Positions 25,074-40,645 of a stretch of DNA of 64,000 bases are shown piece after piece. This stretch comes from an uncultured Candidatus Saccharibacteria bacterium (lineage in GTDB: Bacteria; Patescibacteriota; UBA1384; DTJR01). The stretch spans positions 195,511 to 259,510 of the forward strand of contig CAZAOT010000002.1 in assembly GCA_964487045.1 (NCBI GenBank). Reading direction: 5' to 3'. Numbering within the stretch: position 1 is the stretch's first letter; each line of letters opens with the position of its first letter. The notes under the pieces are model-generated. The model made no database searches and had not been told where the DNA came from. It saw only the letters and a program-made list of their open reading frames with translations. The translations under genes and the position numbers were made by a program.

Positions 25074-25988
25074 TTAGTAGACATAAACCCAAAAAGCTTT
25101 ACCCGAAGGTAGCTTGGAAACGGATCCAATCTGACCGCTTGGACAGTTAGCTGATACTTGCGTATCAGAAAGTAGTTTAAAATACTCACAAGACTGACTA
25201 GCTAATTCGTTATCAATTATATAAACATTATTAAGGATCCTGTTCTCACTAGACCACCCATCAATAGATTTGATCTGACCATCTATTTCCAGCTGAATTT
25301 GGGATTTTGATTTTTCATTAACCGACCAAAGCAAATTCCATCCCTTAGAAACCTTGTAAAGATTCACAATTACTAAATCTACTGGAACAGATATTGTTTT
25401 TGCAGATCCGGGATTATATACATAATACCCATAGAACTGGCTCGCATTAAACGAAGAACCACCAGGATATAAAAGCCATTTGTTGTTTACGCCATCGAAT
25501 CTATACAGATAAAGACCATTTTGCGCAAAGAAGTCACCTGACACCTCTTTTGTATTTCCAAAAACACTAAATCCATGGGGAAAAGATATCGTCTTATAAT
25601 TTGCTCCACTCGAAGTTGATGGTAATGATGATGACGCACCAGAAACGTCCCTTTCCCTCATAGGACCTATTTCACCAAATACTCCCGATTCTTTAAAATT
25701 AAATGGTTCAAATCCAATCAAGCTAATTGCAGGTGAACTTGTCTTGAGACGATAGTCCCCCGCACCCGCATCCTCAAATTGCGGATCAGCAAATACCGAA
25801 TGATTTTCTAAATTGTTGATTCCATTAGCTTGCCACAGATTTTCAAGCCATGACCATGCTCTTAATTTTGGTCCGCCATTATTTATAAAAACTGATGGAT
25901 GACTTGTATCTTCACCAGAATAATCAAAATACAAATTATAGTCCCTTTGCGCAATCATTTTTGCGAGCATCTCCCTCTCTAAGCCCAC
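25074..25988 (-). pseudogene. 5'-truncated gene for a surface protein: C-terminal beta-helix-like end plus the conserved C-terminal domain shared with 12846-14942. The upstream part is replaced by a duplicated segment.
   Basis: The ORF has no signal peptide and begins mid-domain (…ADPQFEDAGAGDYRLKTSSPAI, typical of the end of a parallel beta-helix protein). Its C-terminal region (YGYYVYNP...GWNLLW...AFWVYVY) is paralogous to the C-terminus of the 698-aa secreted protein. It abuts the 780-bp duplication at 26042. Confidence 0.45.
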
Positions 25989-26002
25989 AGCACAATCAGA
26001 GT

Positions 26003-26392
26003 TCAGATAAAGTGGGCGAGTTGGATTATTTGGATCACCTGGGCGCGAGCTTTCACATCCGCTTTCTTCATATGATAAAGTTCACCAACCATCTCAAGTG
26101 TTTCTCTGCCTGTCATAAATTCATCAACGGCTGCAAACTGGCCAGCCAATCCTATTTCATGCCTAACCTTAGAGCCTTCAGTGCAAACATCAAATCCAGC
26201 AACCTCCATCGTCCCACTATCTGGCATCGTAAGTGTTGCTAAAAGTCTTACTAAAGTAGTCTTGCCAGCTCCGTTTGGACCTAGCAATGCATGAATCGTG
26301 CCCTTTTCGATATCCAGGCTCAATCGATCTAAGGCAACAGTTTTGCCAAAACTTTTTGTAATATCCTTTACGTGAATAATTGCTTGAGCCAT
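26003..26392 (-). pseudogene. Truncated copy (first ~120 codons) of the ABC transporter ATP-binding gene found intact at 39324-40262.
   Basis: The protein is identical to the 39324-40262 product through ...MKKADVKARA and then diverges into junk. It lies inside the 780-bp duplication. Confidence 0.7.
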
Positions 26393-26824
26393 TTTACCTA
26401 GATTCCTTAATTTTTCTCTTAACCTTTTCCTTCATTTCAACCACCCTGGATGAAAACGCCGTCATTTTGTCCAGAAATTCATTTAGTTTCTCAGCTTCAA
26501 TCATATGAAGCATTTCCCCAACACCAAAAAATACAAACTTATCACCGGTTTTAATTTTTAATTCATCTCGAGCTTCAATAGGCACAACAATTTGGCCTTT
26601 CTCCCCGATAGTTCCGACTCCGTAAAATTTCTTACATTGATGCATTTTTTCACTATTTGATTATTTCCTACATTTCATACATTACATACTAAACATAATG
26701 ATGTCAATAAAAAAATGAGCATTTGCCCATTTTTTTTACGGTACCTCTGGCGCTTATTCGACTCCCTCGGCTGCCAAATATCAACAAAAAAAGAGCTAAT
26801 GCTCGTTCTTTGTTGATCTGGTAC
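26042..26824. repeat. Near-identical ~780-bp duplication, copy A. Copy B is 39903-40693. It ends with 6 nt of the tRNA-Arg(TCG) 3' end.
   Basis: Nucleotide identity from ggcgcgagctttcacatcc... through ...gttgatctggtac, with only a few indel/SNP differences in the last ~40 bp. Includes the abrB-like gene, the ABC ATPase 5' portion and the tRNA-proximal hairpin. Confidence 0.85.
26394..26645 (-). CDS. AbrB/SpoVT-family DNA-binding protein (duplicate copy of 40264-40515).
   Basis: 83 aa, identical to the 40264-40515 product. GEKGQIVVPIEARDELKIKTGDKFVFF is a swapped-hairpin AbrB-type domain. Confidence 0.65.
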   Translation of the reverse strand: MHQCKKFYGVGTIGEKGQIVVPIEARDELKIKTGDKFVFFGVGEMLHMIEAEKLNEFLDKMTAFSSRVVEMKEKVKRKIKESR

Positions 26825-27012
26825 CCTACTCCGGTCTATAAACCTCATCAGATACCTTAGTCACTATACCTTGTAGAAGCACTTTTTTCAAGAAAAAATG
26901 GCACACAATGGCACAGTATAAAAAAGGGGTGTTCCATTTTATATTTGACTTAGTTGGTCCACCCGTCATCCATTAAAATTTGATAGATATTTCTCATTTC
27001 TTTATTGCACTA

Positions 27013-27041
27013 TTGACAATTTATGACATATGTTCTATATT
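27013..27041 (+). promoter_or_regulatory. Sigma70-like promoter TTGACA-17-TATATT upstream of the DUF134 gene.
   Basis: TTGACA at 27013-27018, a 17-nt spacer, TATATT at 27036-27041. An AAAGGA Shine-Dalgarno at 27054 lies 5 nt before the ATG at 27064. Confidence 0.5.
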
Positions 27042-27063
27042 CAATCTGTAATGAAAGGAATAT

Positions 27064-27582
27064 ATGCGAGGAAGACCTAAGAGAAAAAGATGTATAAACT
27101 TTGTACCAGAGATTACTTATTTTAAGCCAGCGGGTATCCCCCTTCGTGAACTCCAAGAAGAGATACTTTCTTTAGATGAGGCAGAAGCTCTTCGGCTTAC
27201 GGATATTGAAGGACTTGACCAAGAAACTGCCGCAAAGAAAATGGGTATAGTCAGAATAACTTATCTAAATATCATCCATAGCGCGCACAAAAAAGTTGCA
27301 CGAGCTTTAATATACGGAAAAAGCATCCAATTGAAGGGAGGTGATGTTATAATGCCGAACCTAGATGGAACTGGACCGCAGGGTCAAGGACCGATGACAG
27401 GCAGAGGCCAGGGTAGAGGAATGGGTAGAGGACAAAATGCACCTGGGCCAAGAGCTGGCGGAAGCGCGGAATGCACTTGCCCAAGTTGCGGCGAGAAAGT
27501 TGCTCACACTAAAGGAGTGCCTTGCTCGCAAACCAAATGTCCGAAATGTGATACGCCAATGCGTGGCGTGTTCTGTAGCTAA
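27064..27582 (+). CDS. DUF134 (UPF0251) DNA-binding protein fused to a C-terminal DUF5320-like Gly/Arg-rich zinc-ribbon domain.
   Basis: N-terminal [15 protein letters not shown]...FKPAG...[22 protein letters not shown] is DUF134-like. The C-terminus has [23 protein letters not shown] followed by CTCPSCG...CPKC. Confidence 0.7.
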
Positions 27583-27624
27583 GAAAAAAGAGTCGGATGC
27601 GTACGACCGGCTCTTTTTTTGTTT
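27583..27624 (+). terminator. Rho-independent terminator of the DUF134 gene.
   Basis: Stem gagtcgg/ccggctc with a 10-nt loop, followed by TTTTTTTGTTT immediately after the stop codon. Confidence 0.6.
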
Positions 27625-27661
27625 AAAATTTATAATAAGGAGAAAATTGGCTAATTTTTAA

Positions 27662-27680
27662 CAGGTTGGAGGGCCGAGTG
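27662..27680 (-). repeat. 19-bp copy of the tRNA-Lys(CTT) 3' end. Proposed left att direct repeat of the integrated element.
   Basis: ttggagggccgagtgggat is identical to 38222-38240, the 3' acceptor/T-stem of the intact tRNA-Lys. A further 9-nt copy (ggccctcca) at 27790-27800 is fused to an inverted copy of the 24862-24890 terminator. Confidence 0.6.
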
Positions 27681-27872
27681 GGATCCTCGGCGATAATAGC
27701 TTTTTCAAATGAACATCGCCTTGCGCACCCATCCTTCGGATGGGTTCAATTCCGAGACAATCTTCCATCAAAAAACCACCCTTTCGGGTGTTTTTCTGAT
27801 GGAGGGCCTTATCTTACGCTATTATAACCTTGATTGAAGATAATGAATACTGGAAAGCACTCGGTTCTAAAC

Positions 27873-28817
27873 TTAACTATGCTTTTTAATCAAACTATCA
27901 AAACTTTGTTTTTCAACATTTTGAGGCATTGAAGATCTTGGGACAACAGTGTATCTCACCGGCTTATCGCTATCCCTGTTTTTCTCAGGAATATGCTTTA
28001 TGACAAGACCCTTTGGCAATTTAAAAGCTAAAAGGAAAACGATGATGTCCTCGCAGAAAGGAAATAAATTTTCCCACATTTTTGATAAATAAGATGGAAT
28101 ATCTAAATCGTTAATTCTTGGTTCAACCCCAATTGGTTGATTCTTTGAGTCTAAGTGGTATTCAATGCAAGGAAGTTGAAAACCCGAATGTTCAATTTGT
28201 GTCCGTACATCAATGAATTGCGAAAACCACTTCTCTCTATCATCTTTAACCATATCAATGAAAAATTTCATTCCTCCACTTGGATTATTTTCTAAAAACT
28301 TTTTACTTTCCTTATCAAAGTCACTGTCTGATTTAAATATAAACGAAATTTTAAAATCTAAAAATTTTGCAAACCTAATTATGTTTTGATTAGCGATATA
28401 ACCTCTGATAAAAAAATCTTTGAACCAAATATTGAGATTGTCATCAATGGATTCATCTACTCTCAAAGTCTGGTTTTCCACTTTTACAATCTCTCCGCTT
28501 TTGATCTTTTGTCGGTGTTGAACAAGAAGGTTTACACACTCTTCCATTACAATTCTCGCTTCAATTAAATTTTGCAGGACTGGTCCATAAAATTTATCAA
28601 ACTCTCTACGATCCTCTTCCGTTGAGAATACAAAATCTCTTATCTCTAAAATCTGCATTCTCATTCTTGCAGTAAATAGATCTTGCGACCCAAGGTCAGA
28701 GACCTTTACTAAAGTATGTAAAATTTTCTGTTCCTTTTTGTTCATACAACACTTTTTATATTTCTTTCCGCTTTTGCAAGGGCAGGGATCATTTCTTTTT
28801 ATCTTTGTCATTTTCAA
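27873..28817 (-). CDS. SEC-C motif-containing protein of unknown function.
   Basis: N-terminal SEC-C metal-binding motif PCPCKSGKKYKKCC, followed by about 280 aa with no recognised family. Located inside the tRNA-Lys element. Confidence 0.55.
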   Translation of the reverse strand: MKMTKIKRNDPCPCKSGKKYKKCCMNKKEQKILHTLVKVSDLGSQDLFTARMRMQILEIRDFVFSTEEDRREFDKFYGPVLQNLIEARIVMEECVNLLVQHRQKIKSGEIVKVENQTLRVDESIDDNLNIWFKDFFIRGYIANQNIIRFAKFLDFKISFIFKSDSDFDKESKKFLENNPSGGMKFFIDMVKDDREKWFSQFIDVRTQIEHSGFQLPCIEYHLDSKNQPIGVEPRINDLDIPSYLSKMWENLFPFCEDIIVFLLAFKLPKGLVIKHIPEKNRDSDKPVRYTVVPRSSMPQNVEKQSFDSLIKKHS

Positions 28818-28931
28818 AAATTATTCTCCTGTCAATATTATTAGCCATAAACCACCAACCATGCAACAAGAGAACTTATTTTATTCAAACATTAAATACG
28901 TTATACTTAGGATAACTTAGGAGGGAATAAG

Positions 28932-30431
28932 ATGTTACCAGAGGAACAATCAAGTGCCAGCGCCTTATTAACAGTAAGTGAAGCCTCGGAAATATTAGGG
29001 CTACATCCCGATACCCTTAGAGATTGGGACAACTCTGGATTCTTGAAATGTATTAGAATCGGAAAAAGAAGAGACAGGCGTTACCAGAGAAATGATATTG
29101 AGAGGATCTTGTCGGAAGGCACCATTCAAAGAAAAACAGACCAAGGAGAGAGACTAAGACTAATTGAAGAGAAATATCACGTTAATTACCCCGAAACAAA
29201 TTCGGCTACATATACAAGTTTAGTTAACTATAGAGCGGACTTAAAAAGCCCCTTTCAAGGATGGTACAACTACAAGGAAGGATATTCTCTTGAGTTGAAT
29301 CACTTGATCTTTCAATATTTCGGCACGAAGGCAGGTGATTTAATTCTTGATCCCTTCTCGGGAAGCGGCACAACATTACTTGCAGCCAAACAGATAGGTC
29401 TCAGATCAGTCGGATATGAAGTAAATCCTTTTTCTCATTTTCTTTCTGTTGTTAAGACTAGAGATTATTCACCAACCGATTTAAAAACAATTAAAGAAAC
29501 CCTCTGCAATTTTAAAAAGGAGTCGCTGAAGAATGTTAAGTTTGACAAACCAAAGTTATCCACAATTGATAAACTATTTAGTTCTGAAACATTATCTGAA
29601 TTGATGGCAATCAGACAATTCGTTGATAACCTCCCAAGCCAAAAAACAAAGGATTTATTTTTCTTGGCTTGGTTGTCGGGTTTAGAAGAACTATCAAATT
29701 ATAGAAAAGCAGGAAATGGACTCAAAATTCGGAAGACTAAGAATCAAACAACACCAGATCCAAAAAAAACAATTATTCAAAAGATTTCATTAATGATTGA
29801 TGACATCAGCTCCCAGACAACAAAGTCATCCAGCAATGATTTAGAGCCAGTTATCTATAGGAAGTCTTCTCTCAATCTTATTGAAGATATAGAGAAAGGA
29901 TCCGTGAGAGGGGTGATATTTTCGCCACCCTACGCAAACTGCTTTGATTACACAGAAATCTACAAAATTGAATTGTGGCTAGGTGGGTTTGTGCACGACT
30001 ATTCCGATCTGAAGGAGTTGAGAATGGAGACAGTAAAATCTCATCTCAACAGGAAATTTGAAAATCATGGCGATCTTGATATTCCAATCTTGGCAAAGAT
30101 TATAGGAGAAGTTTCTAGGTCAAAGATTTGGGATAAAAGGATACCTAAAATGATTCAGGGGTATTTTGAAGATATGGGGCAAGCACTTTCTCAGCTGTAT
30201 TTAACATTAGAGAAGGGAGGGTTTTGCTGTGTGATTGTAAGTAATTCATCGTATTCCGGCATTATCATTCCAACCGATTTAATAATCTCAGAGATTGCCG
30301 AACAAATAGGATTTACTATTAGAAAAATAGATGTCGCCCGATTTATTATAACCAGCTCGCAGCAATACCACACTACAAAGAGATGGGGTAAATATTTAAG
30401 AGAAAGTATAATTTACATGGAAAAAATATGA
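28932..30431 (+). CDS. DNA methyltransferase (amino-MTase; probably N6-adenine) with an N-terminal MerR/excisionase-type HTH. First of two paralogous MTases.
   Basis: HTH SEASEILGLHPDTLRDWDNSGFL. SAM motif I LDPFSGSGTTLLAA. Catalytic motif IV SPPYANCFDY about 180 aa later. Confidence 0.75.
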   Translation: MLPEEQSSASALLTVSEASEILGLHPDTLRDWDNSGFLKCIRIGKRRDRRYQRNDIERILSEGTIQRKTDQGERLRLIEEKYHVNYPETNSATYTSLVNYRADLKSPFQGWYNYKEGYSLELNHLIFQYFGTKAGDLILDPFSGSGTTLLAAKQIGLRSVGYEVNPFSHFLSVVKTRDYSPTDLKTIKETLCNFKKESLKNVKFDKPKLSTIDKLFSSETLSELMAIRQFVDNLPSQKTKDLFFLAWLSGLEELSNYRKAGNGLKIRKTKNQTTPDPKKTIIQKISLMIDDISSQTTKSSSNDLEPVIYRKSSLNLIEDIEKGSVRGVIFSPPYANCFDYTEIYKIELWLGGFVHDYSDLKELRMETVKSHLNRKFENHGDLDIPILAKIIGEVSRSKIWDKRIPKMIQGYFEDMGQALSQLYLTLEKGGFCCVIVSNSSYSGIIIPTDLIISEIAEQIGFTIRKIDVARFIITSSQQYHTTKRWGKYLRESIIYMEKI

Positions 30432-31702
30432 ATAAAGTTGACCTTGAAATAGTGGAAGTAGACGAACTCCCCCTGAACCCAATAAGGAATCGCGTTTACT
30501 CCATTAACTCAAAAAATATCGGTGTATATACACACAGCTTTTTTAAGTATCCCTGTAAGTTTATCCCTCACATTCCAAGATGGGCAATAAAAAAATACCT
30601 TAAAGGCGACGGAGCGGTATTAGATCCTTTTTGTGGGTCAGGAACAACACTTGTAGAAGGTATCATTCTTGGTAAAAATTCTTATGGCATAGATATTGAC
30701 CCGTTTGGAAGAATGCTTACTCTAGGAAAGACCGAGCGATTTTCAGAAAAGGAAGTCATAGAGCTAGAAAAGATTGGTAGGGAAATAGTCAGAAAATCTA
30801 AAGATATGAAATTTGAGAAAAAATATATTCCACCAATTCCAAATATTGAGCATTGGTTTAGTCAACAAAGCATAGAATCTCTTGCCTCCATAAAAAAAGC
30901 TATTAAAAAATATTCTTTAAAAAGTAAATACGAAAATTTCTTTTATATAGTATTTGCTTCAATTATTAGGAAAGCATCTAAAGCCGATGAAGCGTCACCT
31001 AAACCATACATCTCATCCAGATTCGGTAAAAAACAATGCAATGTTTTTGATTTATTTGAGAAATTCTTTGATAAATATCTAATAAAGATTAAAGAGTTCA
31101 GCGCCATTGCCCCAAGAAAAAATATTTCAAAGATTGTCGGAAATGATGCGAGAAAATTCAAAAAGATGCCAGAGTCAATCAGCTTAGCTATAACCTCTCC
31201 CCCGTATATAAATGCATTTGATTATGTCAGAACACTTAAACTTGAAAACTACTGGCTTGATCTTGTTAACGAAGAAAAATTGTTAACGATTAGGTCTAAT
31301 AGCGTTGGCACAGAAACGATAGCTAAGAACGAACGTAATAAGCTTGTAATTAGCGATATTGAATCCAAGAAGCTCAGACACGCAGTAGAGGAGATAGCCG
31401 AGAAGGATAAGCGGAGATCAATCGTCGTAACCAAATATTTTGAAGACCTAGCGCTAAATCTTCAAGAGGTTTATAAGTCACTTAAGAAAGATGGGGTCTA
31501 TGTAATTGTTGTTGCAGATAGTAATATAAGAAATGTAGAGGTTCCAACACACGAAATACTTTGTGAGCTAGGCAAGAAAACTGGTTTTGTGGTTGAGAAT
31601 ATCTTTGCATATGTTATAAAGAACAGATATCTCCGAATTCCCAGAGAGGGACGAGGAGGGTTTATGCATAACGATTGGATAATATGCCTGAAGAAGAAGT
31701 AG
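30428..31702 (+). CDS. DNA methyltransferase (amino-MTase), paralogue of the upstream MTase.
   Basis: Motif I LDPFCGSGTTLVEG. Motif IV SPPYINAFDY. The 4-bp start/stop overlap with the upstream gene implies translational coupling. Two MTases suit an asymmetric Type IIS site. Confidence 0.75.
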   Translation: MNKVDLEIVEVDELPLNPIRNRVYSINSKNIGVYTHSFFKYPCKFIPHIPRWAIKKYLKGDGAVLDPFCGSGTTLVEGIILGKNSYGIDIDPFGRMLTLGKTERFSEKEVIELEKIGREIVRKSKDMKFEKKYIPPIPNIEHWFSQQSIESLASIKKAIKKYSLKSKYENFFYIVFASIIRKASKADEASPKPYISSRFGKKQCNVFDLFEKFFDKYLIKIKEFSAIAPRKNISKIVGNDARKFKKMPESISLAITSPPYINAFDYVRTLKLENYWLDLVNEEKLLTIRSNSVGTETIAKNERNKLVISDIESKKLRHAVEEIAEKDKRRSIVVTKYFEDLALNLQEVYKSLKKDGVYVIVVADSNIRNVEVPTHEILCELGKKTGFVVENIFAYVIKNRYLRIPREGRGGFMHNDWIICLKKK

Positions 31703-33477
31703 CAGTTGACGCTTCACAATCCAGAAGAGAAGTTTGGCTCATACCCAAGCGATGTAACATTCACCAAATTATTGGTATGGTTGATATTCTTGCGACACAA
31801 GATTTCAATGAACGGATTTGGAATCATGGTAAACAAGAAGCCCTAGGTACAAAAATGGGACTTAGAAAACTTACAGATTCGGGTAGATCAATTACTGGGC
31901 AATCTGTTAGAACTTTACTTGCGAATGGGCCTAAGTATCTAGGTTTTGTTTATATTGATGACGGATCAAAAAAAATATTTGTTACAGACATTGGTTTAGA
32001 GCTAATAAGGGAGAATCTTTTACATTCGGAAAATAATAGCAACCTATCCGACTGGGAAAATAATAATCCAATTGATTCTTCGGAAGCATTTAAGAAACAA
32101 CTTTCAAAGTTAATATTAAACAATCCTCTTGTACGTACTGAGACGAATGGTGTATTAGTCTTCCCCTTTAGGAATACAGTAAAGCTCGCTTTAGACCTAG
32201 AATATTTAGATATTGAAGAACTTGCCTACATAGTATTTAGCATGAAATCAGAAGATGAGTATGACTTGATTAAGGAGAGAATAATTAATTTCCGAGCATT
32301 GACCCCTTTGCAAAGAGATAGAGAGATTGAGGCTTATTCCAGAACCGAAGCTGGTCAGCTGACACTAGTTAAAGCCCCATCTGCTGGATATTACATGTCT
32401 TTTTGTTGCGCTTCGGGACTTTTTGAACGAACTCGGGTTAACGCGAATAGGACTAGGCAGCCGCTTGCGGCAATTAAATTGAGAGATCAAGATGGGGCTA
32501 TCGCCCTTGTTGAGAAATACCAAGCGGCTAGAATATATGATTTCAAAGAAAACTTAAAATTATGGATTGAATACTACTCCTCGCCTAATCGTCTCTTTCC
32601 TCCCCACGACATTACAATTAATTTCAAAGCAAATAAAGGCATATCTTTAGTTGAAATTTTTAAGGATGGAGTAGCTGTCGGTGGCGATATTATTGATGAA
32701 AATAATTCCAAGTTAGTCGTACCAATGTTCCCCGATGAACCCTATTCACTTATTGCTTATGATTCTGATGCGAGCAAGAATTATGAAAAACATATCTCTG
32801 TACAGAACGAAACAGGGGATGTTGAAATAGACCTCGGTACAAGCGAACCAACAGCAGAAGTTAGAACCTCCGAAAATATCAAAAAACTTATCCTGGAAAT
32901 GTTTTCAAGTAAAAGTGGCTTTGACAGTGAATATGAAAAAAGATTAAACCTCTTGCTGAGGAGATTATCTTTAAACCGCTTTGACAGTATTAGAAAGGGC
33001 GGACGACTAGAGTTTCTTTTCAGCGAATTACTTGAGCAACTAAAAAGCAATGGTGTTGTAGATTTCGTGAATTGGTATGGGTCAGTAAAACAATACGGTC
33101 TTGCCTACCCCGCACCTGGAGGTCTTAACGGTAACCCTGATATAGTATTCGGGATAGACAATATAACGGTTGTTCTTGAGCTCACCACAATAAGGGCCAA
33201 TGCTGGGCAATGGGCCGGATCTGAGGCCGCTTCTGTCCCTGATCACATTCAAAGATATCAAAGGGAGACTGGAGCAAAAGATAATATTTTAGGTATCTTT
33301 TGTGCTCCTAGCATCAACGACAGAGTAAGGAATAATTTTGCTGCTCACTCCGAAAGGTCCGGAAGAGCTCATATCTGCCTCTCGGTTGAAGAGATGCTAG
33401 AATTGCTTTCCCGGGACAGACAACACATAATTCAAGAACTTAGAGATTTACAAAGTCAGTCTATCTCCAGAGACTAA
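31675..33477 (+). CDS. Probable Type IIS restriction endonuclease (AlwI/PleI/N.BstNBI-family-like).
   Basis: 600 aa, overlapping the second MTase gene. The C-terminal region has a PD-(D/E)xK-like PDIVFGIDNITVVLELTT. The size and the two-MTase context match GAGTC/GGATC-type IIS systems. The family assignment is from memory, not from an alignment. Confidence 0.5.
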   Translation: MDNMPEEEVAVDASQSRREVWLIPKRCNIHQIIGMVDILATQDFNERIWNHGKQEALGTKMGLRKLTDSGRSITGQSVRTLLANGPKYLGFVYIDDGSKKIFVTDIGLELIRENLLHSENNSNLSDWENNNPIDSSEAFKKQLSKLILNNPLVRTETNGVLVFPFRNTVKLALDLEYLDIEELAYIVFSMKSEDEYDLIKERIINFRALTPLQRDREIEAYSRTEAGQLTLVKAPSAGYYMSFCCASGLFERTRVNANRTRQPLAAIKLRDQDGAIALVEKYQAARIYDFKENLKLWIEYYSSPNRLFPPHDITINFKANKGISLVEIFKDGVAVGGDIIDENNSKLVVPMFPDEPYSLIAYDSDASKNYEKHISVQNETGDVEIDLGTSEPTAEVRTSENIKKLILEMFSSKSGFDSEYEKRLNLLLRRLSLNRFDSIRKGGRLEFLFSELLEQLKSNGVVDFVNWYGSVKQYGLAYPAPGGLNGNPDIVFGIDNITVVLELTTIRANAGQWAGSEAASVPDHIQRYQRETGAKDNILGIFCAPSINDRVRNNFAAHSERSGRAHICLSVEEMLELLSRDRQHIIQELRDLQSQSISRD

Positions 33478-33650
33478 TCTTTTTTACGACTCGGAAAACT
33501 CGGTTTTTCTATTGATGAATCAGGGGCATTATCCAAAAAGCTCAAATAGCTCTAATTCCTTTTTTAGTGACTCTATAAACTCTGATTTGTTTTTTTAATG
33601 ACTCAGAAAACTCAGGTTTTCGCTATTACCTGCCGATATCAAACGTTTTT

Positions 33651-34892
33651 TTATAGTGAGGTTATCGTTTCGCCTAGTGGTGTGCTAAGTTGCCATTGAG
33701 GTCCATTGCTAGTTCCCATTTCATTTATCAACCCAAGCTCGTGTTGCTTCATCCAATCTTCAGGCGCTTTATAGGCATAATCTTGGTTTTTAACTAGGTT
33801 CATGCAATATGAAATATCTTTACAATCAGGTGGTAATTTAACCTGACCATCTTTATCTCTAACTTTTCCATAGTTTAGATCCCAGTCAATATATTCTTGA
33901 ATTTTTTCATCGCTATCAAAGAGATGAAAATAAGATGATTTATCCTTAGAATGCATTTCTCGCGCAGCATTTTTAAGTTCATCGTCCGTTGGTTTTCTTG
34001 AAAAAACGATCATTTTCCAAGTCTGCCCAGTTTGTTGATAACTTTTTACCTCTCTATAACTCAAAGCGGTAATTGGAGTGTTGGTAGGCGTTGAAGTTTG
34101 CGTTTTGCTCTGTTCAGTTTGCTTTGGGCTTGGAGTTTCTGTTGGGACTTGAGTTTTGTTTTCTATACTTTTAACCTTAGTTGGTACTTCCTTTGGAATA
34201 TAGTTTATGGCTATATCCTTACTCTCACTTTGATTCCCAGCTTTATCGCGAGCAATAATCTGAAATTTGTTCTCTCCCTTATCAAGGGCAATTCCTTTAA
34301 TGGTAAAGCTATTACTCTTAACCTTAACTTTTTTAATTTCTTTTGTATTTTTTATTACGACAATTTCCGCTTTTGCCTCGGAGCTTCCCTTGATATCTAG
34401 CTTATTTCGCTCCGTGGGGCTTTGTGGCGCTTCAATTGTCAGGGATGGGGATATTGTATCTAAAACCACTGATGCTTCATTGCTCTGCCTGATCCTGCCC
34501 TCCATATTTGTTGAACTTACCATGAGTTTATTTTCGCCTTCTTTTAGCTCTAAACTCTTAAATGAAAATTTGCCCTGATTATCTGCTTTGGCTTCTTCCT
34601 TTAATTCAGAATTGAAATAAATTTTCACCACCGAATCATTAAAAGCATTGGTTCCGGAAATTATAAGCGCTTTTTGATTCGTTGGACTTTTAACCGCATC
34701 TAAGTATGGAATTCCTTTTGCAAATACTGTGAATATTATTACAGAGGCAATAGTTAGAGGAACGAAGATCAAGGAAATGACTTTCCTATTTGAGTAACTT
34801 TTAAGAATTCGTTTAAAAACTAAAGGCTTAATCATTCCAACAATAAATGCTATTCCAAAAATGAAGAACAGCGCCATAAACAATGAGTCCAT
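33651..34892 (-). CDS. Membrane-anchored surface protein with Ig-like (Big-type) domains.
   Basis: 413 aa. N-terminal TM segments, then repeated beta-sandwich-like segments (…ISGTNAFNDSVVKIYFN…KGENKLMVSS…, …KGENKFQIIARDKAGN…) and a Thr/Pro/Gln-rich linker. Confidence 0.55.
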   Translation of the reverse strand: MDSLFMALFFIFGIAFIVGMIKPLVFKRILKSYSNRKVISLIFVPLTIASVIIFTVFAKGIPYLDAVKSPTNQKALIISGTNAFNDSVVKIYFNSELKEEAKADNQGKFSFKSLELKEGENKLMVSSTNMEGRIRQSNEASVVLDTISPSLTIEAPQSPTERNKLDIKGSSEAKAEIVVIKNTKEIKKVKVKSNSFTIKGIALDKGENKFQIIARDKAGNQSESKDIAINYIPKEVPTKVKSIENKTQVPTETPSPKQTEQSKTQTSTPTNTPITALSYREVKSYQQTGQTWKMIVFSRKPTDDELKNAAREMHSKDKSSYFHLFDSDEKIQEYIDWDLNYGKVRDKDGQVKLPPDCKDISYCMNLVKNQDYAYKAPEDWMKQHELGLINEMGTSNGPQWQLSTPLGETITSL

Positions 34893-35009
34893 AATATCCC
34901 CCGTTTAAATTAATTTATAGTTGGTCCAAACAATTAGAATGCTATATAATCACTGGTCAATATTCAAGTAGAGGAGTATAAAGTAAAAAGAATTAAAATT
35001 AAAATTAAT

Positions 35010-35660
35010 ATGAAATATTCAACTAGCACAACAGACAAAATCAAGAAGTTGTGCGAATTCATACAAGGACAGATTGAGCTTAAAGGTAAATTCAAAGTTC
35101 AGTTTGACGACACACATGCAGGAATTGCCAATGATACTAAAAATGTTATTGAGCTCTTAAGAAAAAATGAATGCCTGTTCAGAACAGTAGAGAAAAGGAC
35201 AATAGTATACCCAGAGAACTTTAACGAAGAACATGATTTCTTTACTCTTGAGATAGATCCAATAAAATTTAACAACTATATCAGAAATGAACTACGTATC
35301 CTTCCTCCAAGTATTGAAAGTATTGGTGAAATTAAGAAAATAGAATATCTGGAAAATTTCAGATCATTTTCTTTAAATGATAGAAAAAGTGAAATTCAAT
35401 TAAAGGGCGGAAAAAAGATTGCTGATATTCTTGAGCTCCTATGGAAGAATAGAAGAGTATCTAGAAAAGGTAGGGTTGATCCACTACGAATTGGAGAATT
35501 TTATAATATTGAACCTCTTATGCAAAATAGCAGAACAGTAAGTACAGAAGCTTTGCTCAGAAGTATTGGGAGGATTAATACTTTCTTCGTAGAAAACTAT
35601 CTACCAATGAGAATAGAAAGTAAGAATCAAGAAAAGTTTCGCCTAGAGATTAATTTTTGA
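35010..35660 (+). CDS. Hypothetical protein (element cargo).
   Basis: 216-aa ORF with typical AT-rich coding composition. No family recognised. Confidence 0.5.
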   Translation: MKYSTSTTDKIKKLCEFIQGQIELKGKFKVQFDDTHAGIANDTKNVIELLRKNECLFRTVEKRTIVYPENFNEEHDFFTLEIDPIKFNNYIRNELRILPPSIESIGEIKKIEYLENFRSFSLNDRKSEIQLKGGKKIADILELLWKNRRVSRKGRVDPLRIGEFYNIEPLMQNSRTVSTEALLRSIGRINTFFVENYLPMRIESKNQEKFRLEINF

Positions 35661-35788
35661 CAAGCGTTAGACAAAATTGGACAAAATTGACAGAGTTTTA
35701 GATTGAAGTTAGGGTGTGCTAAGCCGCATACGCTGAATCGTCTATTTTGTCTTATTCTGTAAAGCTGCCTGCGTGGTAATTTTATTCT

Positions 35789-36031
35789 ATGAATGAGAAT
35801 AACAATTACTACAAATCTTCCGACCTTGGCTGTTCAGCGGCATTAATTACTGCTGGTTTTGAATTAATGACGATAGAGAAAAATGACCCCAAGAGGGTTA
35901 TTTTTGTTTTTGATATATCAAAAGAGATACAGCTTTCCGCGGAAGACTATTTGTCTGACAGATTGCAGGTCAGTGCCCGAAGATATTTTGAAAATCTACG
36001 AGTTCTTAAAAGCAGAATTTACGCAGACTAA
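35789..36031 (+). CDS. Hypothetical small protein (element cargo).
   Basis: 80-aa ORF. No family recognised with confidence. Confidence 0.45.
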   Translation: MNENNNYYKSSDLGCSAALITAGFELMTIEKNDPKRVIFVFDISKEIQLSAEDYLSDRLQVSARRYFENLRVLKSRIYAD

Positions 36032-36177
36032 AAATAAAAAATGAAACTGCAACAAAATCAAACTAATCAACGCGAACTTTCAATGGAAGAATTGGAAGAC
36101 CTTTTCGCAGCCCAACTAGCAGAGATTTTTGTTGAGCAGATTTTAGATGAAGAAAAAAATAAAGATGAAAATTACCA

Positions 36178-36564
36178 ATGGACGAGTACGAACTTAAGTC
36201 AAAGCTAAGAGGTTATTTCAATTTCCCGAGATCACTTATTATTGATTTAGCTACAAATAATATAACGCCTGATCAATTTACTCTATTTACTGTTTTTCTA
36301 GGACTAGCTAGCTGGGACAGTAGAGGAAAAAACTATGCAACTATAAATACTTCTAATCGCGAGATTTCCAAAATACTCCACTGGAATAGAAATAAAATCG
36401 GGCTTAATAAGGGGTTACTATTTGGCCGCAAATATATTGATTTACTAAATGGAAAAAACCGCCAACTCAAAATAAGAATCAATAACCCTGAGCTATTTTA
36501 CTCAAAAATTACAGGAGAAGTGTCCAAGACGAGAGCCACTAAGGTTAATCCAAGGCCCACTTAA
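36178..36564 (+). CDS. Hypothetical protein, possibly a winged-helix DNA-binding or replication-associated protein (element cargo).
   Basis: 128-aa ORF directly upstream of the recombinase gene. Contains an HTH-like segment (NREISKILHWNRNKIGLNKG). Weak support. Confidence 0.4.
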   Translation: MDEYELKSKLRGYFNFPRSLIIDLATNNITPDQFTLFTVFLGLASWDSRGKNYATINTSNREISKILHWNRNKIGLNKGLLFGRKYIDLLNGKNRQLKIRINNPELFYSKITGEVSKTRATKVNPRPT

Positions 36565-36713
36565 CAGATTAAATTTCTTTATTTAATTTTCTTTGAAGAT
36601 AGCAATGTATTAATGAGAATAAATATTTTAATAATAAGGAGGCAAAAATGTTAGAATTGTTATAGAAGCAATAAAAAAAGTATAAACACTGGATAAATAA
36701 TTAATCAAAAAAA

Positions 36714-38264
36714 ATGAAATGTTTAATTTACTCACGAGTTAGTACCGAAGACCAAGCAGAAAAGGGACGATCAATTGGTGACCAAATCAAAATGTGCAAA
36801 AGATATGCTGATGACAACGGCTATCGCATTATAGATATATTCAAGGATGAAGGAAAAACTGCTACAAATATGAATCGGGCAGGGCTACAAGATCTAATCA
36901 TTAAATGTCAGGAAGAAAAGGATATAGCTTGTGTACTTGTACAAGACACGGATCGTCTTGCAAGGAACACATCCGATCATCTCCAAATAAAAGCGATTCT
37001 GAAAAAAGCAGGAGCAAGGGTAATCTCTATTAGCCAACCAATGCTTGATGACGAAACCCCCGAGGGTCAATTTATGGATTTGGTTATTGCAGGGGTAAAT
37101 GCCTTTCAGTCAAAAATTACAGGAAGAAAGGTGAGTAAATGCATGAAAGAGAAATTTCTTGAAGGTGTGTGGCCTAGCTGGGTAACCGTTGGATATATTA
37201 ATGACGATATCGGAACTCTAGAAAAACCTATGAATGTAATCTCAGATGATAAATTCAAACAGCCACTTATAAAGGAAGCTTTTAGATTATTCTCAAAAGG
37301 AATCTATAGCGTGGAAGAAGTCAACGACATAGTCTTCAAAAAGGGCTTAACCGGAAGGCATGGAAAAAAGATGTCTCCATCAGAGCTAAATAGGGTATTG
37401 AAAAACCCTTTTTATTTTGGATTGATGCGGTGGAACGGATTGGAAAAAATGGGTACGCACACTAAGATCATTACTAAATCTCTATTTGACCAGTGTCAGA
37501 ATGTTTTTATTGAACGCAATATGATGGCTAATCGTGAAAGAAAACATAACTTCCTATTAAGAGGTTTTGTCTACTGTGGAACTTGTGGAAAAAGATTGAC
37601 CGCTGAGTATCATGGCTCTAAATTTTATTACCATTGTGCTTCAAAACTTCATAGCAACAAAGGACAAAATTTTGATGGGGATACTACCGAAGCGAGAATT
37701 GAGCAATTGTTTGACCAACTTAAGTTACCAGATGACTTTACAAAAAAAGTATTTTCAAAAGCGGAGGAAATACTTAAGAATTCGCGTGTTGAAGTTAACC
37801 AGACAAAAAGAACTCTTAATGCACAAAAAGCAAAATTAGAAACAAAGAGAGACTCAATTGAAGATAGATTACTTGAAGGAGTAATTACCTCTGATGTATA
37901 TGTAAGGCAACATAATAGCGTTGAGGAGCAAATAAAAAATATTGAGAAACAGCTTGATGACGCAAATCATAATAAAAATGAGAATATAAAAGTTTTTGAA
38001 AAATTGATGTTTTTATCTGGAAATTTAGGAGAAGCTTACCGACTAGCTAATCCAAGAATCAAAAGGCATTACCTAACAATATTTTGGGATAGAATTGAAA
38101 TCAAAAATCATAAGATAAAAAAAGCGGTCCCGACAAAGACCTACTTAAAATTATTTCCTGGCATGAACTATAACAAACCTGAAAATTTGGTTGCGAACCA
38201 TAAAATTATAAAAGAACGAAATTGGAGGGCCGAGTGGGATTCGAACCCACGACCAATTGCTTAA
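36714..38264 (+). CDS. Large serine recombinase (integrase) of the tRNA-Lys-associated element.
   Basis: 516 aa. Resolvase-type catalytic domain (LIYSRVSTEDQ...DQ...DRLARN), a recombinase domain, a zinc ribbon (CGTCGKRLTAEYHG...YYHC) and a coiled-coil tail. The last 14 codons read into the tRNA-Lys 3' end, so the gene overlaps the att core. Confidence 0.85.
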   Translation: MKCLIYSRVSTEDQAEKGRSIGDQIKMCKRYADDNGYRIIDIFKDEGKTATNMNRAGLQDLIIKCQEEKDIACVLVQDTDRLARNTSDHLQIKAILKKAGARVISISQPMLDDETPEGQFMDLVIAGVNAFQSKITGRKVSKCMKEKFLEGVWPSWVTVGYINDDIGTLEKPMNVISDDKFKQPLIKEAFRLFSKGIYSVEEVNDIVFKKGLTGRHGKKMSPSELNRVLKNPFYFGLMRWNGLEKMGTHTKIITKSLFDQCQNVFIERNMMANRERKHNFLLRGFVYCGTCGKRLTAEYHGSKFYYHCASKLHSNKGQNFDGDTTEARIEQLFDQLKLPDDFTKKVFSKAEEILKNSRVEVNQTKRTLNAQKAKLETKRDSIEDRLLEGVITSDVYVRQHNSVEEQIKNIEKQLDDANHNKNENIKVFEKLMFLSGNLGEAYRLANPRIKRHYLTIFWDRIEIKNHKIKKAVPTKTYLKLFPGMNYNKPENLVANHKIIKERNWRAEWDSNPRPIA

Positions 38265-38297
38265 GAGGCAACTGCTCTACCGCTGAGCTATCGGCCC
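38223..38297 (-). tRNA. tRNA-Lys(CTT).
   Basis: Hand-folded. Acceptor GGGCCGA/TCGGCCC, D-arm GCTC-AGCGGTA-GAGC, anticodon stem GTTGC/GCAAT with loop CTCTTAA (anticodon CTT), T-arm GTGGG-TTCGAAT-CCCAC. CCA is encoded. Confidence 0.8.
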
Positions 38298-38317: not shown

Positions 38318-38492
38318 GTTCGAATCCGATTCGGTCACCCGTCAAAATCTGTTGATTTTGCGGTCGACCCCGGCTCGGCCCGTCGGCCTGCGCCTCTTTG
38401 ACGTTTAGCTCGCCATTCCACCCGTCGAGCCGTCAAAGCCCACGACCAATTGCTTGAAGTGCGACAACTGCACAACCCGTGAGCTATCGGCC
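38318..38492 (-). repeat. Conserved tRNA-associated element, copy 2 of 3 (38318-38398), followed by a degenerate copy of the tRNA-Lys 5' two-thirds (38437-38492).
   Basis: Minus-strand read: gggccgatagctcacgggttgtgcagttgtcgcacttcaagcaattggtcgtggg is a degenerate tRNA-Lys 5' part. Then ...aggccgacgggccgagccggggtcgaccg-caaaatcaacagattttg-acgggtgaccgaatcggattcgaac matches the elements at 24911-24990 and 52131-52215. The 70-aa ORF predicted here is rejected. Confidence 0.5.
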
Positions 38493-38550
38493 CAATCTTG
38501 AATTATTCTACCGTATTCGAGAGAATATTTCAATTCAACAAGACGCTTTT

Positions 38551-39327: not shown

Positions 39328-40262
39328 TTCGTTTTTCTCCCAGTTACCGCAAGAAATACATCATCAAGGCTAGGTCTATGTAGTGAAATTTCTTCTGGCT
39401 CGATGCCTGCTTTTAAAAGCGCATCTGCTACTAACAAAAGCGTCTTGCTACCATCTTTAGCCGGTAAACGTACCGCTGCAGTTAGTGAGTCAATATTTAT
39501 ATTTTTATTAATTTTATAGAGAACCTTCTCACCATCGGCCTGTTGATTTTCCCTAAAACGCACTTCTATAACATCACGACCAAGTGATTTTTTAAGCTCC
39601 ACCGGAGTTCCCTCCGCAGCTATTCGCCCTTTATCAATTACAGTAATGTAATCCGCTAACGCATCAGCCTCCTCCATATACTGGGTTGTCAATAAAATCG
39701 TTGATCCATCCTTTACAAGATCACGAATAATATTCCACAGCTCTGAACGAGTCCGTGGATCGAGTCCGGTAGTCGGCTCATCTAAGAAAATGACTTTAGG
39801 CTGATATACCAAACTTGCTCCGACATCAAGACGGCGGCGCATACCACCAGAGTAGGTTTTGGCTGGTCTATCAGCAGCTTCGGTAAGACCTAATTTTTCA
39901 AGTAACTCCTTGGCGCGAGCTTTCACATCCGCTTTCTTCATATGATAAAGTTCACCAACCATCTCAAGTGTTTCTCTGCCTGTCATAAATTCATCAACGG
40001 CTGCAAACTGGCCAGCCAATCCTATTTCATGCCTAACCTTAGAGCCTTCAGTGCAAACATCAAATCCAGCAACCTCCATCGTCCCACTATCTGGCATCGT
40101 AAGTGTTGCTAAAAGTCTTACTAAAGTAGTCTTGCCAGCTCCGTTTGGACCTAGCAATGCATGAATCGTGCCCTTTTCGATATCCAGGCTCAATCGATCT
40201 AAGGCAACAGTTTTGCCAAAACTTTTTGTAATATCCTTTACGTGAATAATTGCTTGAGCCAT
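39324..40262 (-). CDS. ABC transporter ATP-binding protein (DrrA/ABC-2 exporter type).
   Basis: Walker A GPNGAGKTT, ABC signature YSGGMRRRL, Walker B ILFLDEPTTGLD. 312 aa. Confidence 0.85.
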   Translation of the reverse strand: MAQAIIHVKDITKSFGKTVALDRLSLDIEKGTIHALLGPNGAGKTTLVRLLATLTMPDSGTMEVAGFDVCTEGSKVRHEIGLAGQFAAVDEFMTGRETLEMVGELYHMKKADVKARAKELLEKLGLTEAADRPAKTYSGGMRRRLDVGASLVYQPKVIFLDEPTTGLDPRTRSELWNIIRDLVKDGSTILLTTQYMEEADALADYITVIDKGRIAAEGTPVELKKSLGRDVIEVRFRENQQADGEKVLYKINKNINIDSLTAAVRLPAKDGSKTLLLVADALLKAGIEPEEISLHRPSLDDVFLAVTGRKTK

Positions 40263-40263
40263 T

Positions 40264-40515
40264 TTACCTAGATTCCTTAATTTTTCTCTTAACCTTTTCC
40301 TTCATTTCAACCACCCTGGATGAAAACGCCGTCATTTTGTCCAGAAATTCATTTAGTTTCTCAGCTTCAATCATATGAAGCATTTCCCCAACACCAAAAA
40401 ATACAAACTTATCACCGGTTTTAATTTTTAATTCATCTCGAGCTTCAATAGGCACAACAATTTGGCCTTTCTCCCCGATAGTTCCGACTCCGTAAAATTT
40501 CTTACATTGATGCAT
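40264..40515 (-). CDS. AbrB/SpoVT-family DNA-binding protein, likely regulator of the downstream ABC exporter.
   Basis: 83 aa. GEKGQIVVPIEARDELKIKTGDKFVFF. Located 1 bp upstream of the ABC ATPase gene. Confidence 0.65.
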   Translation of the reverse strand: MHQCKKFYGVGTIGEKGQIVVPIEARDELKIKTGDKFVFFGVGEMLHMIEAEKLNEFLDKMTAFSSRVVEMKEKVKRKIKESR

Positions 40516-40645
40516 TTTTTCACTATTTGATTATTTCCTACATTTCATACATTACATACTAAACATAATGATGTCAATAAAAAAATGAGCATTTGCCCAT
40601 TTTTTTTACGGTACCTCTGGCGCTTATTCGACTCCCTCGGCTGCC

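Follow-up and report, generated by a model that had tools for sequence, protein, structure and literature searches.

In the window, by which we mean the whole stretch of 64,000 nucleotides that was analysed, an intact tRNA-Lys(CTT) gene lies on the minus strand at 38223-38297, as claimed in the original prediction, and was found with both ARAGORN and Rfam (75.6 bits); in the Rfam search of 23.5-42.5 kb, tRNAs were the only matches. The end of this gene is present a second time. The 19-nt sequence TTGGAGGGCCGAGTGGGAT, i.e., the 18 nt of the tRNA 3′ end (CCA included) plus one flanking nucleotide, occurs exactly twice in the window, with a spacing of 10,556 bp and 19/19 identity, and none of 100 shuffled windows contained two matches to it. 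The proximal att core (attR-type) at 38222-38240 lies within the tRNA gene and also within the ORF of a large serine recombinase (LSR), and the distal att core (attL-type) lies at 27666-27684. The exact 19-bp copy of the tRNA 3′ end had been predicted correctly, but the coordinates first given for its distal location (27662-27680) were 4 nt too low, because TTGGAGGGCCGAGTGGGAT was located at 27666-27684. As expected of a genomic island, one end has an intact tRNA gene and the opposite end a direct repeat made of its displaced 3′ fragment, and the G+C content of the element (35.5%) differs modestly from that of its flanks (39-40%).

The LSR gene (36714-38264, plus strand) is intact, encodes 516 aa and, as had also been predicted, its stop region overlaps the tRNA gene's 3′ end. 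The TAA stop codon at 38262-38264 lies 42 nt inside tRNA-Lys, on the opposite strand, in the complement of the anticodon loop, and the final 14 codons are the antisense of the 3′ part of the tRNA. The domains found with Pfam are those of a serine integrase, with a resolvase-type catalytic domain that contains the serine (Resolvase, 6.8e-30), then a C-terminal Recombinase domain (PF07508, 2.9e-12) and a zinc ribbon (Zn_ribbon_recom, PF13408, 1.4e-07), the last two above their cut-offs; the protein also matches a PHROG integrase (3.5e-81) and the catalytic domain of the TP901-1 integrase (1.8e-14). Y6, R8 and S10 of the motif YSRVST are invariant in an alignment with 13 relatives, as are Cys288, Cys291 and Cys308. 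Among the nine ORFs of at least 80 aa between the repeats, the only Pfam integrase families are those of the LSR, and dyad symmetry in the reconstructed attP and attB sites of seven elements was not above the shuffled null. Directly upstream of the LSR gene is an ORF for a hypothetical 128-aa protein (36178-36564, plus strand) with no match in Pfam, NCBIfam, PHROGs or PADLOC, and before it one for a DUF5659 protein (35789-36031, plus strand; Pfam 2.4e-13), homologues of which are encoded upstream of the LSR at loci L004, L008 and L169 and at 9 of the 80 loci retained from a genome scan. The DUF5659 protein repeatedly accompanies this LSR lineage and may be a regulator or directionality factor; judged by position only, it and the 128-aa ORF are candidates for any recombination directionality factor.

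The genes carried between the repeats include two for amino-methyltransferases, adjacent and co-oriented on the plus strand. M1 (28932-30431) has an N-terminal MerR/HTH_17 domain followed by N6_N4_Mtase, and M2 (30428-31702) is an N6_N4_Mtase paralogue of it (26% identical, E = 2e-27). In both, motif I, LDPF[SC]GSGTT, precedes SPPY (near residues 139 and 331, respectively, in M1, and near 65 and 257 in M2), and both match the PADLOC MTase_II family over their full length (2e-104 for M1 and 3.9e-101 for M2); in PHROGs, M1 was matched to DNA methyltransferase and, more weakly, to excisionase/regulator and transposase families. The 600-aa ORF that follows (31675-33477, plus strand) encodes a restriction endonuclease of the AlwI family, with 47.9 bits against Pfam RE_AlwI (curated cut-off 23.1; best stretch at profile positions 3-116 of 441) and a match to PADLOC REase_II PDLC03422 (5.4e-107) that spans profile positions 7-588 of 591. 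At E <= 1e-5 it has 181 homologues, and among the 120 listed most have 565-600 aa, a few fall outside this range, and several bear the name AlwI family; a PDB sequence search returned no solved relative. Its start is probably three codons downstream of the TTG at 31675, because the database copy has 597 aa.

As judged from these families and motifs, the island carries a Type II restriction-modification (RM) system that is complete, with an endonuclease of the AlwI family and two SPPY methyltransferases that are paralogues. Both the methyltransferase pair, one member with an N-terminal HTH, and the endonuclease had been proposed from the sequence, and both proposals were borne out. The further assignment to Type IIS stood as far as Type II is concerned; that the system is Type IIS is probable from its membership of the AlwI family and from a gene content of two methyltransferases, which suits an asymmetric site, and not from the recognition site itself. 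AlwI, PleI/MlyI and N.BstNBI/BspD6I are Type IIS systems of this family, and GGATC and GAGTC were considered as specificities; a guess at the specificity from 5-mer depletion in the window gave no candidate site, with GGATC and GAGTC at their expected frequency. The island resembles these systems in its RE_AlwI and full-length REase_II endonuclease and in having two separate amino-methyltransferases, and differs from them in the MerR/Xis-type HTH domain at the N-terminus of M1. In itself, the RM cargo is ordinary.

The other cargo agrees with the SEC-C, surface and hypothetical proteins that had been expected. Pfam identified a 314-aa SEC-C-motif protein (27873-28817, minus strand; 5e-09), which has weak similarity to a DUF5659 protein of L004, and an Ig-like-domain (Big_13/Big_6) protein (33651-34892, minus strand), which is probably surface-exposed, while a hypothetical 216-aa protein (35010-35660, plus strand) went unmatched in Pfam, NCBIfam, PHROGs and PADLOC. 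Each of the cargo ORFs is intact. A prophage was considered and rejected, as genes for virion structure, packaging and lysis were not found in the PHROGs search of the island ORFs, the matches being limited to the LSR (integrase/DNA invertase), M1, and families of unknown function for the SEC-C and Ig-like proteins. An origin from a phage is likewise unsupported, because a scan of viral contigs for relatives of the LSR gave one moderately close match (39% identity), the others being generic LSRs.

The comparison with relatives, which had been suggested as a check, did reveal unoccupied sites, in related species and not in the same strain. At L209/L210 and L213-L216, an ABC ATPase-permease backbone is followed by tRNA-Lys(ctt), next to whose 3′ end there is no LSR element, and the AbrB gene is present in the empty-site relatives where the contig extends far enough (L212 and L216 begin later); the genomes are of a different species from that of the window, the ABC operon being 78% identical at the DNA level. 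The 14 nt that lie 3′ of the CCA in L209, ACCTGTTAATTAGC, match the outer flank of the distal repeat in the window, ACCTGTTAAAAATTAGC, and this flank of the L209/L210 tRNA-Lys thus finds its counterpart 10.5 kb away and not at the proximal repeat. By alignment with the unoccupied L209 site, 27649-27665 is the native flank 3′ of tRNA-Lys, and the distal att core is, on this sequence comparison, the native tRNA-Lys 3′ end (18 nt plus one flanking nucleotide) in a displaced position. The order at L213-L216 is permease, a 218-aa ORF, tRNA-Lys and terminator; at L208 the permease terminator adjoins the 3′ end of tRNA-Lys and the site is unoccupied, and at L190 DUF134, tRNA-Glu, tRNA-Lys(ctt) and tRNA-Arg lie inside 1.3 kb. 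The close DUF134 relatives L169-L175 were set aside as empty sites because they are not syntenic on the tRNA side; the empty sites came from the ABC-permease side.

The locus has a complicated local history. Near the island there is a perfect duplication of 785 bp and an inversion relative to L209, a 5′ pseudo-fragment of tRNA-Lys lies at 38439-38494, and tRNA-Glu 3′ repeats are present. A 13.87-kb unit between the 785-bp repeats was considered as the true mobile unit and not adopted, because the backbone of tRNA-Arg, AbrB-like gene, ATPase, permease and tRNA-Lys is conserved in relatives; in L209/L210 this backbone has an insertion of ~3.4 kb after tRNA-Arg.

The overlap between recombinase and tRNA genes recurs well beyond this island. 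Of 70 LSR relatives from species-representative genomes of many phyla, 36 have their stop codon within a tRNA gene on the opposite strand; half of the relatives sampled share this architecture, in Patescibacteria, Acidobacteriota, Verrucomicrobiota, Bacteroidota, Omnitrophota and others. Four closer relatives have flanking sequence (three further contigs that duplicate them are left out of this count), and in each of the four the LSR gene overlaps, at its 3′ end, with a convergent tRNA over 40-57 nt; an alignment of relatives revealed that the C-terminal tails WRAxWxSNPR are antisense tRNA. In six elements, 7-11 kb in size, repeats of 13-19 nt begin at the 3′ end of a tRNA, while in many relatives of the tRNA-His type no repeat of at least 10 nt was found within 10 kb. 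From these genomes, a serine recombinase at a tRNA gene reads as the rule within the lineage, and the lineage itself as widespread, barely described and targeting tRNA genes. The original description of such a recombinase at a tRNA as uncommon is accurate for the literature that was searched, where tRNA targeting by serine integrases is essentially unreported, but not for this lineage.

The anatomy of the sequence, the unoccupied sites seen in relatives, the families of the proteins and an LSR-tRNA overlap found across the lineage make it very probable that 27685-38221 (~10.5-10.6 kb) is an integrative genomic island that entered the 3′ end of tRNA-Lys(CTT) by means of its own LSR; catalysis, the position of the crossover and current mobility are what we infer beyond them. 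In the circular form, attP would be at the extreme 3′ end of the LSR gene and would carry ~18 nt of the tRNA end, in antisense ...W-R-A-E-W-D. The LSR would pair it with attB, i.e., the part of the tRNA gene that forms the acceptor and T-arm, cleave both at a crossover of 2 bp within the shared 19 nt, rotate and religate them. The element-borne copy would then restore an intact tRNA, and the native 3′ end would be displaced by 10.5 kb, beside its original flank. In the integrated state, the LSR ORF would extend into host DNA and stop at the TAA on the anticodon-loop complement (...WDSNPRPIA), whereas in the circle it is predicted to end with ...WDPRR (512 aa versus 516 aa). The RM cargo would protect the host, and it could make the island more stable.

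A more complex history is suggested by the left end of the island. The non-coding segment at 27685-27808 (~124 bp) contains a bidirectional hairpin terminator (27765-27802), which repeats the native tRNA-Glu terminator at 24857-24894 in inverted orientation (37/38), and a second match to the tRNA-Lys 3′ end, the 9-nt TGGAGGGCC at 27800-27808, which is complementary to the tRNA-Lys end GGCCCTCCA and adjoins the hairpin. The segment may be the element's own end, or the relic of an earlier insertion with 27800-27808 as an alternative attL. Because the 9-nt match abuts a copy of the host tRNA-Glu terminator, two insertions in series come into consideration, with the attL of the LSR element maybe 124 bp further in: an earlier element would have made the 19-nt repeat and decayed to ~115 bp (27685-27799, the hairpin plus 80 nt), and the LSR element, now 27809-38221 with TGGAGGGCC as its attL, would have entered the regenerated tRNA by a crossover at most 9 nt from the 3′ end. 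Two successive 3′ fragments with a hairpin and ~100 nt between them are also found at the L209 tRNA-Arg and at the window tRNA-Glu, both without an LSR, and an identity of 19 nt is far above the ~2 bp that a serine recombinase needs (PMC5704250). We nevertheless regard the serial history as unlikely: the repeats of the six best-defined lineage elements reach the T-stem, in agreement with the 19-nt repeat; the circular ORF stops three codons on if the core is of 19 nt, whereas a 9-nt core would give 27 more codons, into the SEC-C gene in antisense; and 6 of the 9 matching nucleotides are outside the hairpin, so that the match could be due to chance. For the single insertion that we prefer, the predicted circular junction, at odds with the serial one, is GAGTGGGAT joined to CCTCGGCG.

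It is more improbable still that the island integrated at the tRNA and is now a fixed, immobile fossil in which the LSR is kept but unused. Neither a circle nor an empty site of the same species emerged from exact-protein look-ups of the window DUF134 protein, the LSR and P0001 (no record), from a scan of metagenome contigs for the left flank plus core (0 matches) or from two scans of viral contigs for both candidate attP junctions (0 matches), and the locus around the island is much rearranged and scarred; the identity of the repeats, a full-length LSR with invariant catalytic residues and the intact cargo ORFs nonetheless speak against a fossil, and a Logan contig (SRR11845623) that ends exactly at the tRNA CCA, as at an assembly-graph branch, is weakly in line with them. 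The tRNA-Lys pseudo-fragment, tRNA-Glu repeats, 785-bp duplication and inversion could be taken to mean that the 19-nt repeat arose by local duplication or rearrangement of tRNA genes and that the LSR/RM block is there by coincidence or through MAG mis-assembly. This is hardly credible in view of the native flank, whose place next to the distal repeat is just what integration predicts, of the orientation of both copies, also as predicted, with only the tRNA 3′ end in the distal one, and of an LSR-tRNA overlap that recurs in 36 independent assemblies.

In the textbook and survey view, tyrosine integrases use tRNA genes, and serine integrases use, and often disrupt, protein-coding genes. The island LSR shares with phiC31, Bxb1, TP901-1, A118, CcrB and XisF the domain order Resolvase, Recombinase, zinc ribbon and the catalytic serine in YSRVST, and its gene is likewise at the edge of the element, adjoining an att site. 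Myxophage Mx8 IntP and the Sulfolobus SSV1 integrase have attP within the integrase ORF and attB in a tRNA gene, and the integrase gene is altered upon integration in Mx8 and split in SSV1; both are tyrosine recombinases, and in the present island, by contrast, only the last few LSR codons are predicted to change. Known large serine integrases target protein-coding or intergenic sites with a crossover identity of ~2 bp, often disrupting the target (PMC5704250; PMC10083194), whereas the island LSR uses a tRNA 3′ end, would restore the tRNA via a shared block of 13-19 nt, and has its attP within its own last codons. Islander/TIGER tRNA islands (PMC4383910) have in common with it the intact tRNA, the displaced 3′ fragment as distal direct repeat, the integrase gene beside the tRNA and a sporadic presence among relatives, but they encode tyrosine integrases. 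In Mageeney 2020, 14 of 297 S-Int elements were at t(m)RNA genes, which was called previously unreported and in need of experimental proof. Tycheposons are similar as small cargo-carrying elements at tRNA genes, and in the portion of the Prochlorococcus preprint that was available (bioRxiv 10.1101/2020.12.28.424599), 27 of 937 elements (tycheposons plus cryptic ones) encode a large serine instead of a tyrosine recombinase, with no mention there of an LSR ORF overlapping the tRNA; they differ in host phylum and in their replication module, which was not found among the genes of the present island.

The island provides a clean, intact example, with empty-site support, of a serine integrase that appears to use and regenerate a tRNA 3′ end, and makes the question of Mageeney et al. 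2020, whether S-Ints truly use tRNA genes, testable. It also brings to light small islands by which defence genes spread in the streamlined genomes of Patescibacteria (candidate phyla radiation, CPR), and serine integrases with very conserved natural attB sites are of interest for genome engineering. More tentatively, as a possibility that we would not yet call likely, a large, multi-phylum LSR lineage may be specialised on tRNA genes, undescribed as such, with the antisense overlap functional as an integration-state switch; tRNA genes would then be highly conserved landing sites for genome engineering. In such a switch, the host tRNA would provide the last codons and the stop of the recombinase, and convergent tRNA transcription, stopped by a terminator that lies within the LSR codons in antisense, would turn off or modulate the LSR only in the integrated state, in analogy to Mx8 IntP/IntX or integration-dependent immunity but in serine recombinases. 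A terminator-like hairpin with a T-run is present on the tRNA strand (38117-38141, minus), antisense within the LSR codons KKAVPTK and ~85-100 nt downstream of tRNA-Lys, and comparable sites were found at 23 of 39 related loci, compared with a background of 0.23 per 150 nt.

A tRNA-Lys(ctt) gene was located by ARAGORN on the minus strand at 38223-38297, with a concordant Rfam match of 75.6 bits, and the last 18 nt of this gene (CCA included) together with one flanking base make up a 19-mer, TTGGAGGGCCGAGTGGGAT, of which the window holds exactly two copies, at 27666-27684 and 38222-38240; two matches were found in none of 100 shuffles. The intact tRNA gene and the exact copy of its 3′ end about 10.5 kb away had both been part of the original prediction and were found again, except that the distal copy, previously placed at 27662-27680, lies 4 nt higher. 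The G+C content of the island is 35.5%, versus 39-40% in the flanks. Its large serine recombinase (LSR) is encoded on the plus strand at 36714-38264, carries the three Pfam domains of such enzymes, matches a PHROG integrase family (3.5e-81) as well as the catalytic domain of the TP901-1 integrase, and retains Y6, R8 and S10, which are invariant among its relatives. The stop region of this gene had been expected to overlap the tRNA, and, in fact, the stop codon lies 42 nt inside tRNA-Lys, in the complement of the anticodon loop. The tRNA-Lys island is thus a real feature, and its interpretation as an insertion into the tRNA gene is supported.

An exact-match look-up of window proteins (DUF134, the LSR and P0001) did not trace them to other contigs, and a metagenome scan for the flank joined to the core gave no match; close relatives were reached through the ABC-2 permease on the tRNA side. 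In two of these, the related loci L209 and L210, the ABC operon is 78% identical to that of the window in DNA and about 90% in protein, and the order is tRNA-Arg(tcg), an insertion of ~3.4 kb, an AbrB-like gene, the ATPase, the permease, a 218-aa ORF and tRNA-Lys(ctt), past which ordinary genes follow, with no LSR element. Directly after the tRNA-Lys CCA, L209 reads ACCTGTTAATTAGC; the window, on the tRNA strand, reads ACCTGTTAAAAATTAGC beside the distal repeat, while beside the intact tRNA-Lys it has antisense LSR coding sequence without similarity to the L209 flank. The L209 sequence therefore pairs with the distal and not the proximal flank of the window, which, on this sequence comparison, puts the native flank 10.5 kb away from its tRNA, as integration predicts. 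In a second lineage (L213-L216) a terminator immediately follows tRNA-Lys, so that the proposed check on insertion-free relatives turned up unoccupied genes in both groups. At L208 the permease terminator abuts the tRNA-Lys 3′ end, and at L190 DUF134, tRNA-Glu, tRNA-Lys(ctt) and tRNA-Arg(tcg) all lie inside 1.3 kb. Separately, a Logan contig (L207, SRR11845623), 100% identical to window 39941-38223, breaks off precisely where the CCA of tRNA-Lys ends, missing the outer border of the att core by 1 nt; such a break is compatible with, but no proof of, an assembly-graph branch caused by polymorphism at the site. The closest DUF134 homologue (92% amino acid identity; L169, 584-7372) adjoins another LSR (28% identity) and a DUF5659 gene, and the DUF134 gene therefore often adjoins mobile DNA.

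In the reading with most support, an attP within the final LSR codons, bearing the tRNA 3′ end, would recombine with an attB in the tRNA gene by a crossover presumably within the common 19 nt, whereupon tRNA-Lys would be restored by the island-borne copy. The end of the LSR ORF would change from ...WDPRR* in the circle, where the protein would have 512 aa, to ...WDSNPRPIA* and 516 aa after integration. The predicted junctions are TTTTTAACAGGTTGGAGGGCCGAGTGGGATTCGAACCC for the empty site (attB) and, for attP, GAGTGGGATCCTCGGCGATAATAG with the 19-nt core or AATTGGAGGGCCTTATCTTACGC with a 9-nt core; dyad symmetry in the reconstructed attP and attB sites was not above that of a shuffled null. Catalysis by the LSR, the crossover position and present-day mobility are inferred. 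The regenerated tRNA-Lys would lose its native terminator on integration. A terminator-like hairpin with a T-run on the tRNA strand (minus, 38117-38141), antisense to the LSR codons KKAVPTK, may end transcription of the regenerated tRNA. These codons are conserved as (I)KKAVPT, with comparable sites at L004, L006, L011 and others. Of 39 related loci, 23 have such a site within 150 nt of the tRNA, whereas the rest of the antisense LSR genes shows a background of 0.23 per 150 nt; this enrichment is suggestive only, because the 39 loci are not independent.

The overlap of recombinase and tRNA is shared by all four of the closer relatives (51-58% identity) that have enough flank, two of which are duplicated by three further contigs: at its 3′ end the LSR gene shares 57 nt with a convergent tRNA-Glu(ctc) in L001-L003; in L004 and L006-L008 the partner is a convergent tRNA-Lys(ttt) and the overlap measures 40-42 nt. 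An alignment of 13 relatives showed C-terminal tails of the form W-R-A-x-W-x-S-N-P-R, i.e., the antisense translation of CCA, acceptor stem and T-loop. Among 70 LSR relatives of 25-42% identity, drawn from a collection with one genome per species, the stop codon lies within an antisense tRNA gene in at least 36, a lower bound because several loci scored as having none possess tRNA-like tails; the tRNAs are His (14 loci), Glu (11), Asn (3), Ala and Arg (2 each), and Asp, Cys, Lys and Ser (1 each), and the hosts belong to Patescibacteria, Acidobacteriota, Verrucomicrobiota, Bacteroidota, Omnitrophota and other phyla. By our own estimate, the stop codon of a random gene would fall in an antisense tRNA with a chance well under 1%. 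Six elements of 7-11 kb have distal repeats of 13-19 nt, which start at most 3 nt from the tRNA 3′ end and extend to the T-stem or T-loop; the distal copy in L004 has a terminator behind it, as expected of a native tRNA flank. The integration module of the island is unusual, its lineage widespread and its restriction-modification cargo ordinary. Mageeney et al. (2020; PMC7192596) placed 14 of 297 S-Int elements at t(m)RNA genes, a siting that they termed previously unreported and in need of experimental proof, and Durrant et al. (2022; PMC10083194), in their large survey of LSRs, nowhere mention tRNA. A review of mobilizable elements (PMC5704250) describes serine-recombinase elements as having very short flanking repeats and sitting within genes, and the Prochlorococcus tycheposon study (bioRxiv 10.1101/2020.12.28.424599) gives an LSR in 27 of 937 elements, tycheposons and cryptic elements pooled. 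No description of an LSR ORF reading into its own tRNA target was found in the literature searched. The nearest known analogues, Mx8 IntP and SSV1, are tyrosine integrases.

At the distal end, read on the minus strand, the island is followed by GGCCCTCCA (27808-27800), a hairpin (27802-27765), about 80 nt, the 19-nt repeat and the native flank. The hairpin repeats, in inverted orientation and with 37/38 identity, a terminator at 24857-24894, which comes after a displaced tRNA-Glu 3′ fragment, is native to tRNA-Glu and has an orthologue in L209; the copy lies inside the left end of the island and abuts a 9-nt match to the tRNA-Lys 3′ end. Because of this copy, and of similar double-fragment scars at tRNA-Arg in L209 and at the tRNA-Glu of the window, an earlier insertion might have left 27685-27808 behind, in which case the attL of the LSR would be 27800-27808, a reading that we regard as improbable: the outer boundary is favored by the 13-19-nt repeats of the other lineage elements and by the stop codon that follows at once if attP has the 19-nt core. 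The inverted 38-nt hairpin pair could mediate inversion of 24895-27764.

Between the repeats lie genes for a SEC-C protein, two methyltransferases (M1 and M2), a 600-aa endonuclease, an Ig-like protein and a DUF5659 protein, besides two ORFs without any family match; phage structural genes are absent from the island. The SEC-C protein and the paralogous methyltransferases had been anticipated, and the latter both have motif I (LDPF[SC]GSGTT) before SPPY, are 26% identical to each other (E = 2e-27) and match PADLOC MTase_II over their full length (2e-104 and 3.9e-101), M1 having the additional N-terminal MerR/HTH_17 domain that had also been foreseen. The endonuclease, previously a candidate, passed the Pfam RE_AlwI model (47.9 bits; cut-off 23.1) and matches PADLOC REase_II at positions 7-588 of 591 (5.4e-107). 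A search at E <= 1e-5 gave 181 homologues; the 120 listed mostly measure 565-600 aa, and the name "AlwI family type II restriction endonuclease" is attached to several of them. Together with M1 and M2 the endonuclease forms a complete, otherwise ordinary Type II restriction-modification system, predicted to be Type IIS because it has two methyltransferases and because of the known properties of AlwI-family enzymes; 5-mer depletion gave no hint of its recognition site. The small DUF5659 gene recurs on the same strand 0.6-2.7 kb upstream of LSR genes of the lineage (35789-36031 in the window, 8927-9157 in L004, 3939-4178 in L008, 3643-3876 in L169, and nine genome loci), making its product a candidate accessory or directionality factor of the LSR; by position, the 128-aa ORF just ahead of the LSR gene is another candidate for a directionality factor.

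The surroundings of the locus bear further rearrangements. A 785-bp direct repeat (26043-26826 and 39913-40695, spacing 13,870 nt), whose copies are identical but for a few differences toward the right end (mismatches and a 1-nt indel), spans an AbrB/MazE-like gene plus the start of the ABC ATPase gene (~116 codons), and its right end reaches 6 nt into the 3′ end of tRNA-Arg(tcg) (TGGTAC). In the left copy the ATPase ORF is truncated (26003-26392), and L207 ends 30 nt into the repeat, as for a k=31 unitig; unequal exchange, circle insertion or another event are candidate origins. Upstream of the intact tRNA-Lys, at a distance of 141 nt, lies a degenerate fragment of the gene (38439-38494, minus) that extends from its 5′ end as far as the 3′ strand of the T-stem and is ~82-87% identical to the intact copy; relatives have the 218-aa ORF in this place, and similar 5′ fragments precede tRNA-Lys in L006 and L190. 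At 24697-24998, a 40-nt stretch from the 3′ end of tRNA-Glu(ttc) recurs without mismatch 48 nt past the gene (24820-24859), in front of the terminator, and a third, degenerate copy lies at 24978-24998; this is an old integration scar, since L209 has an 18-nt version of it. Relative to the synteny of L209/L210, the cytidylyltransferase gene, tRNA-Glu and terminator (24284-24894; L209 12358-13100) are inverted, while the genes flanking this block (UvrB and UvrA at one end, the ABC operon at the other) are oriented as in L209/L210. The L209 insertion at tRNA-Arg(tcg) (5202-8720) encodes 881-aa and 133-aa ORFs, with no recombinase seen, and extends from the tRNA to two 3′ fragments in a row, first GGGTACCA with a hairpin and then CCGGGCGTACCA with the native terminator. 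Finally, the G+C-rich spacer between tRNA-Lys and its pseudo-fragment (38364-38395) has a 97% inverted copy at 52133-52164, between tRNA-Gly and tRNA-Arg(tct), and behind tRNA scars, at 24895-24960 and in L209, there are related stretches rich in G+C.
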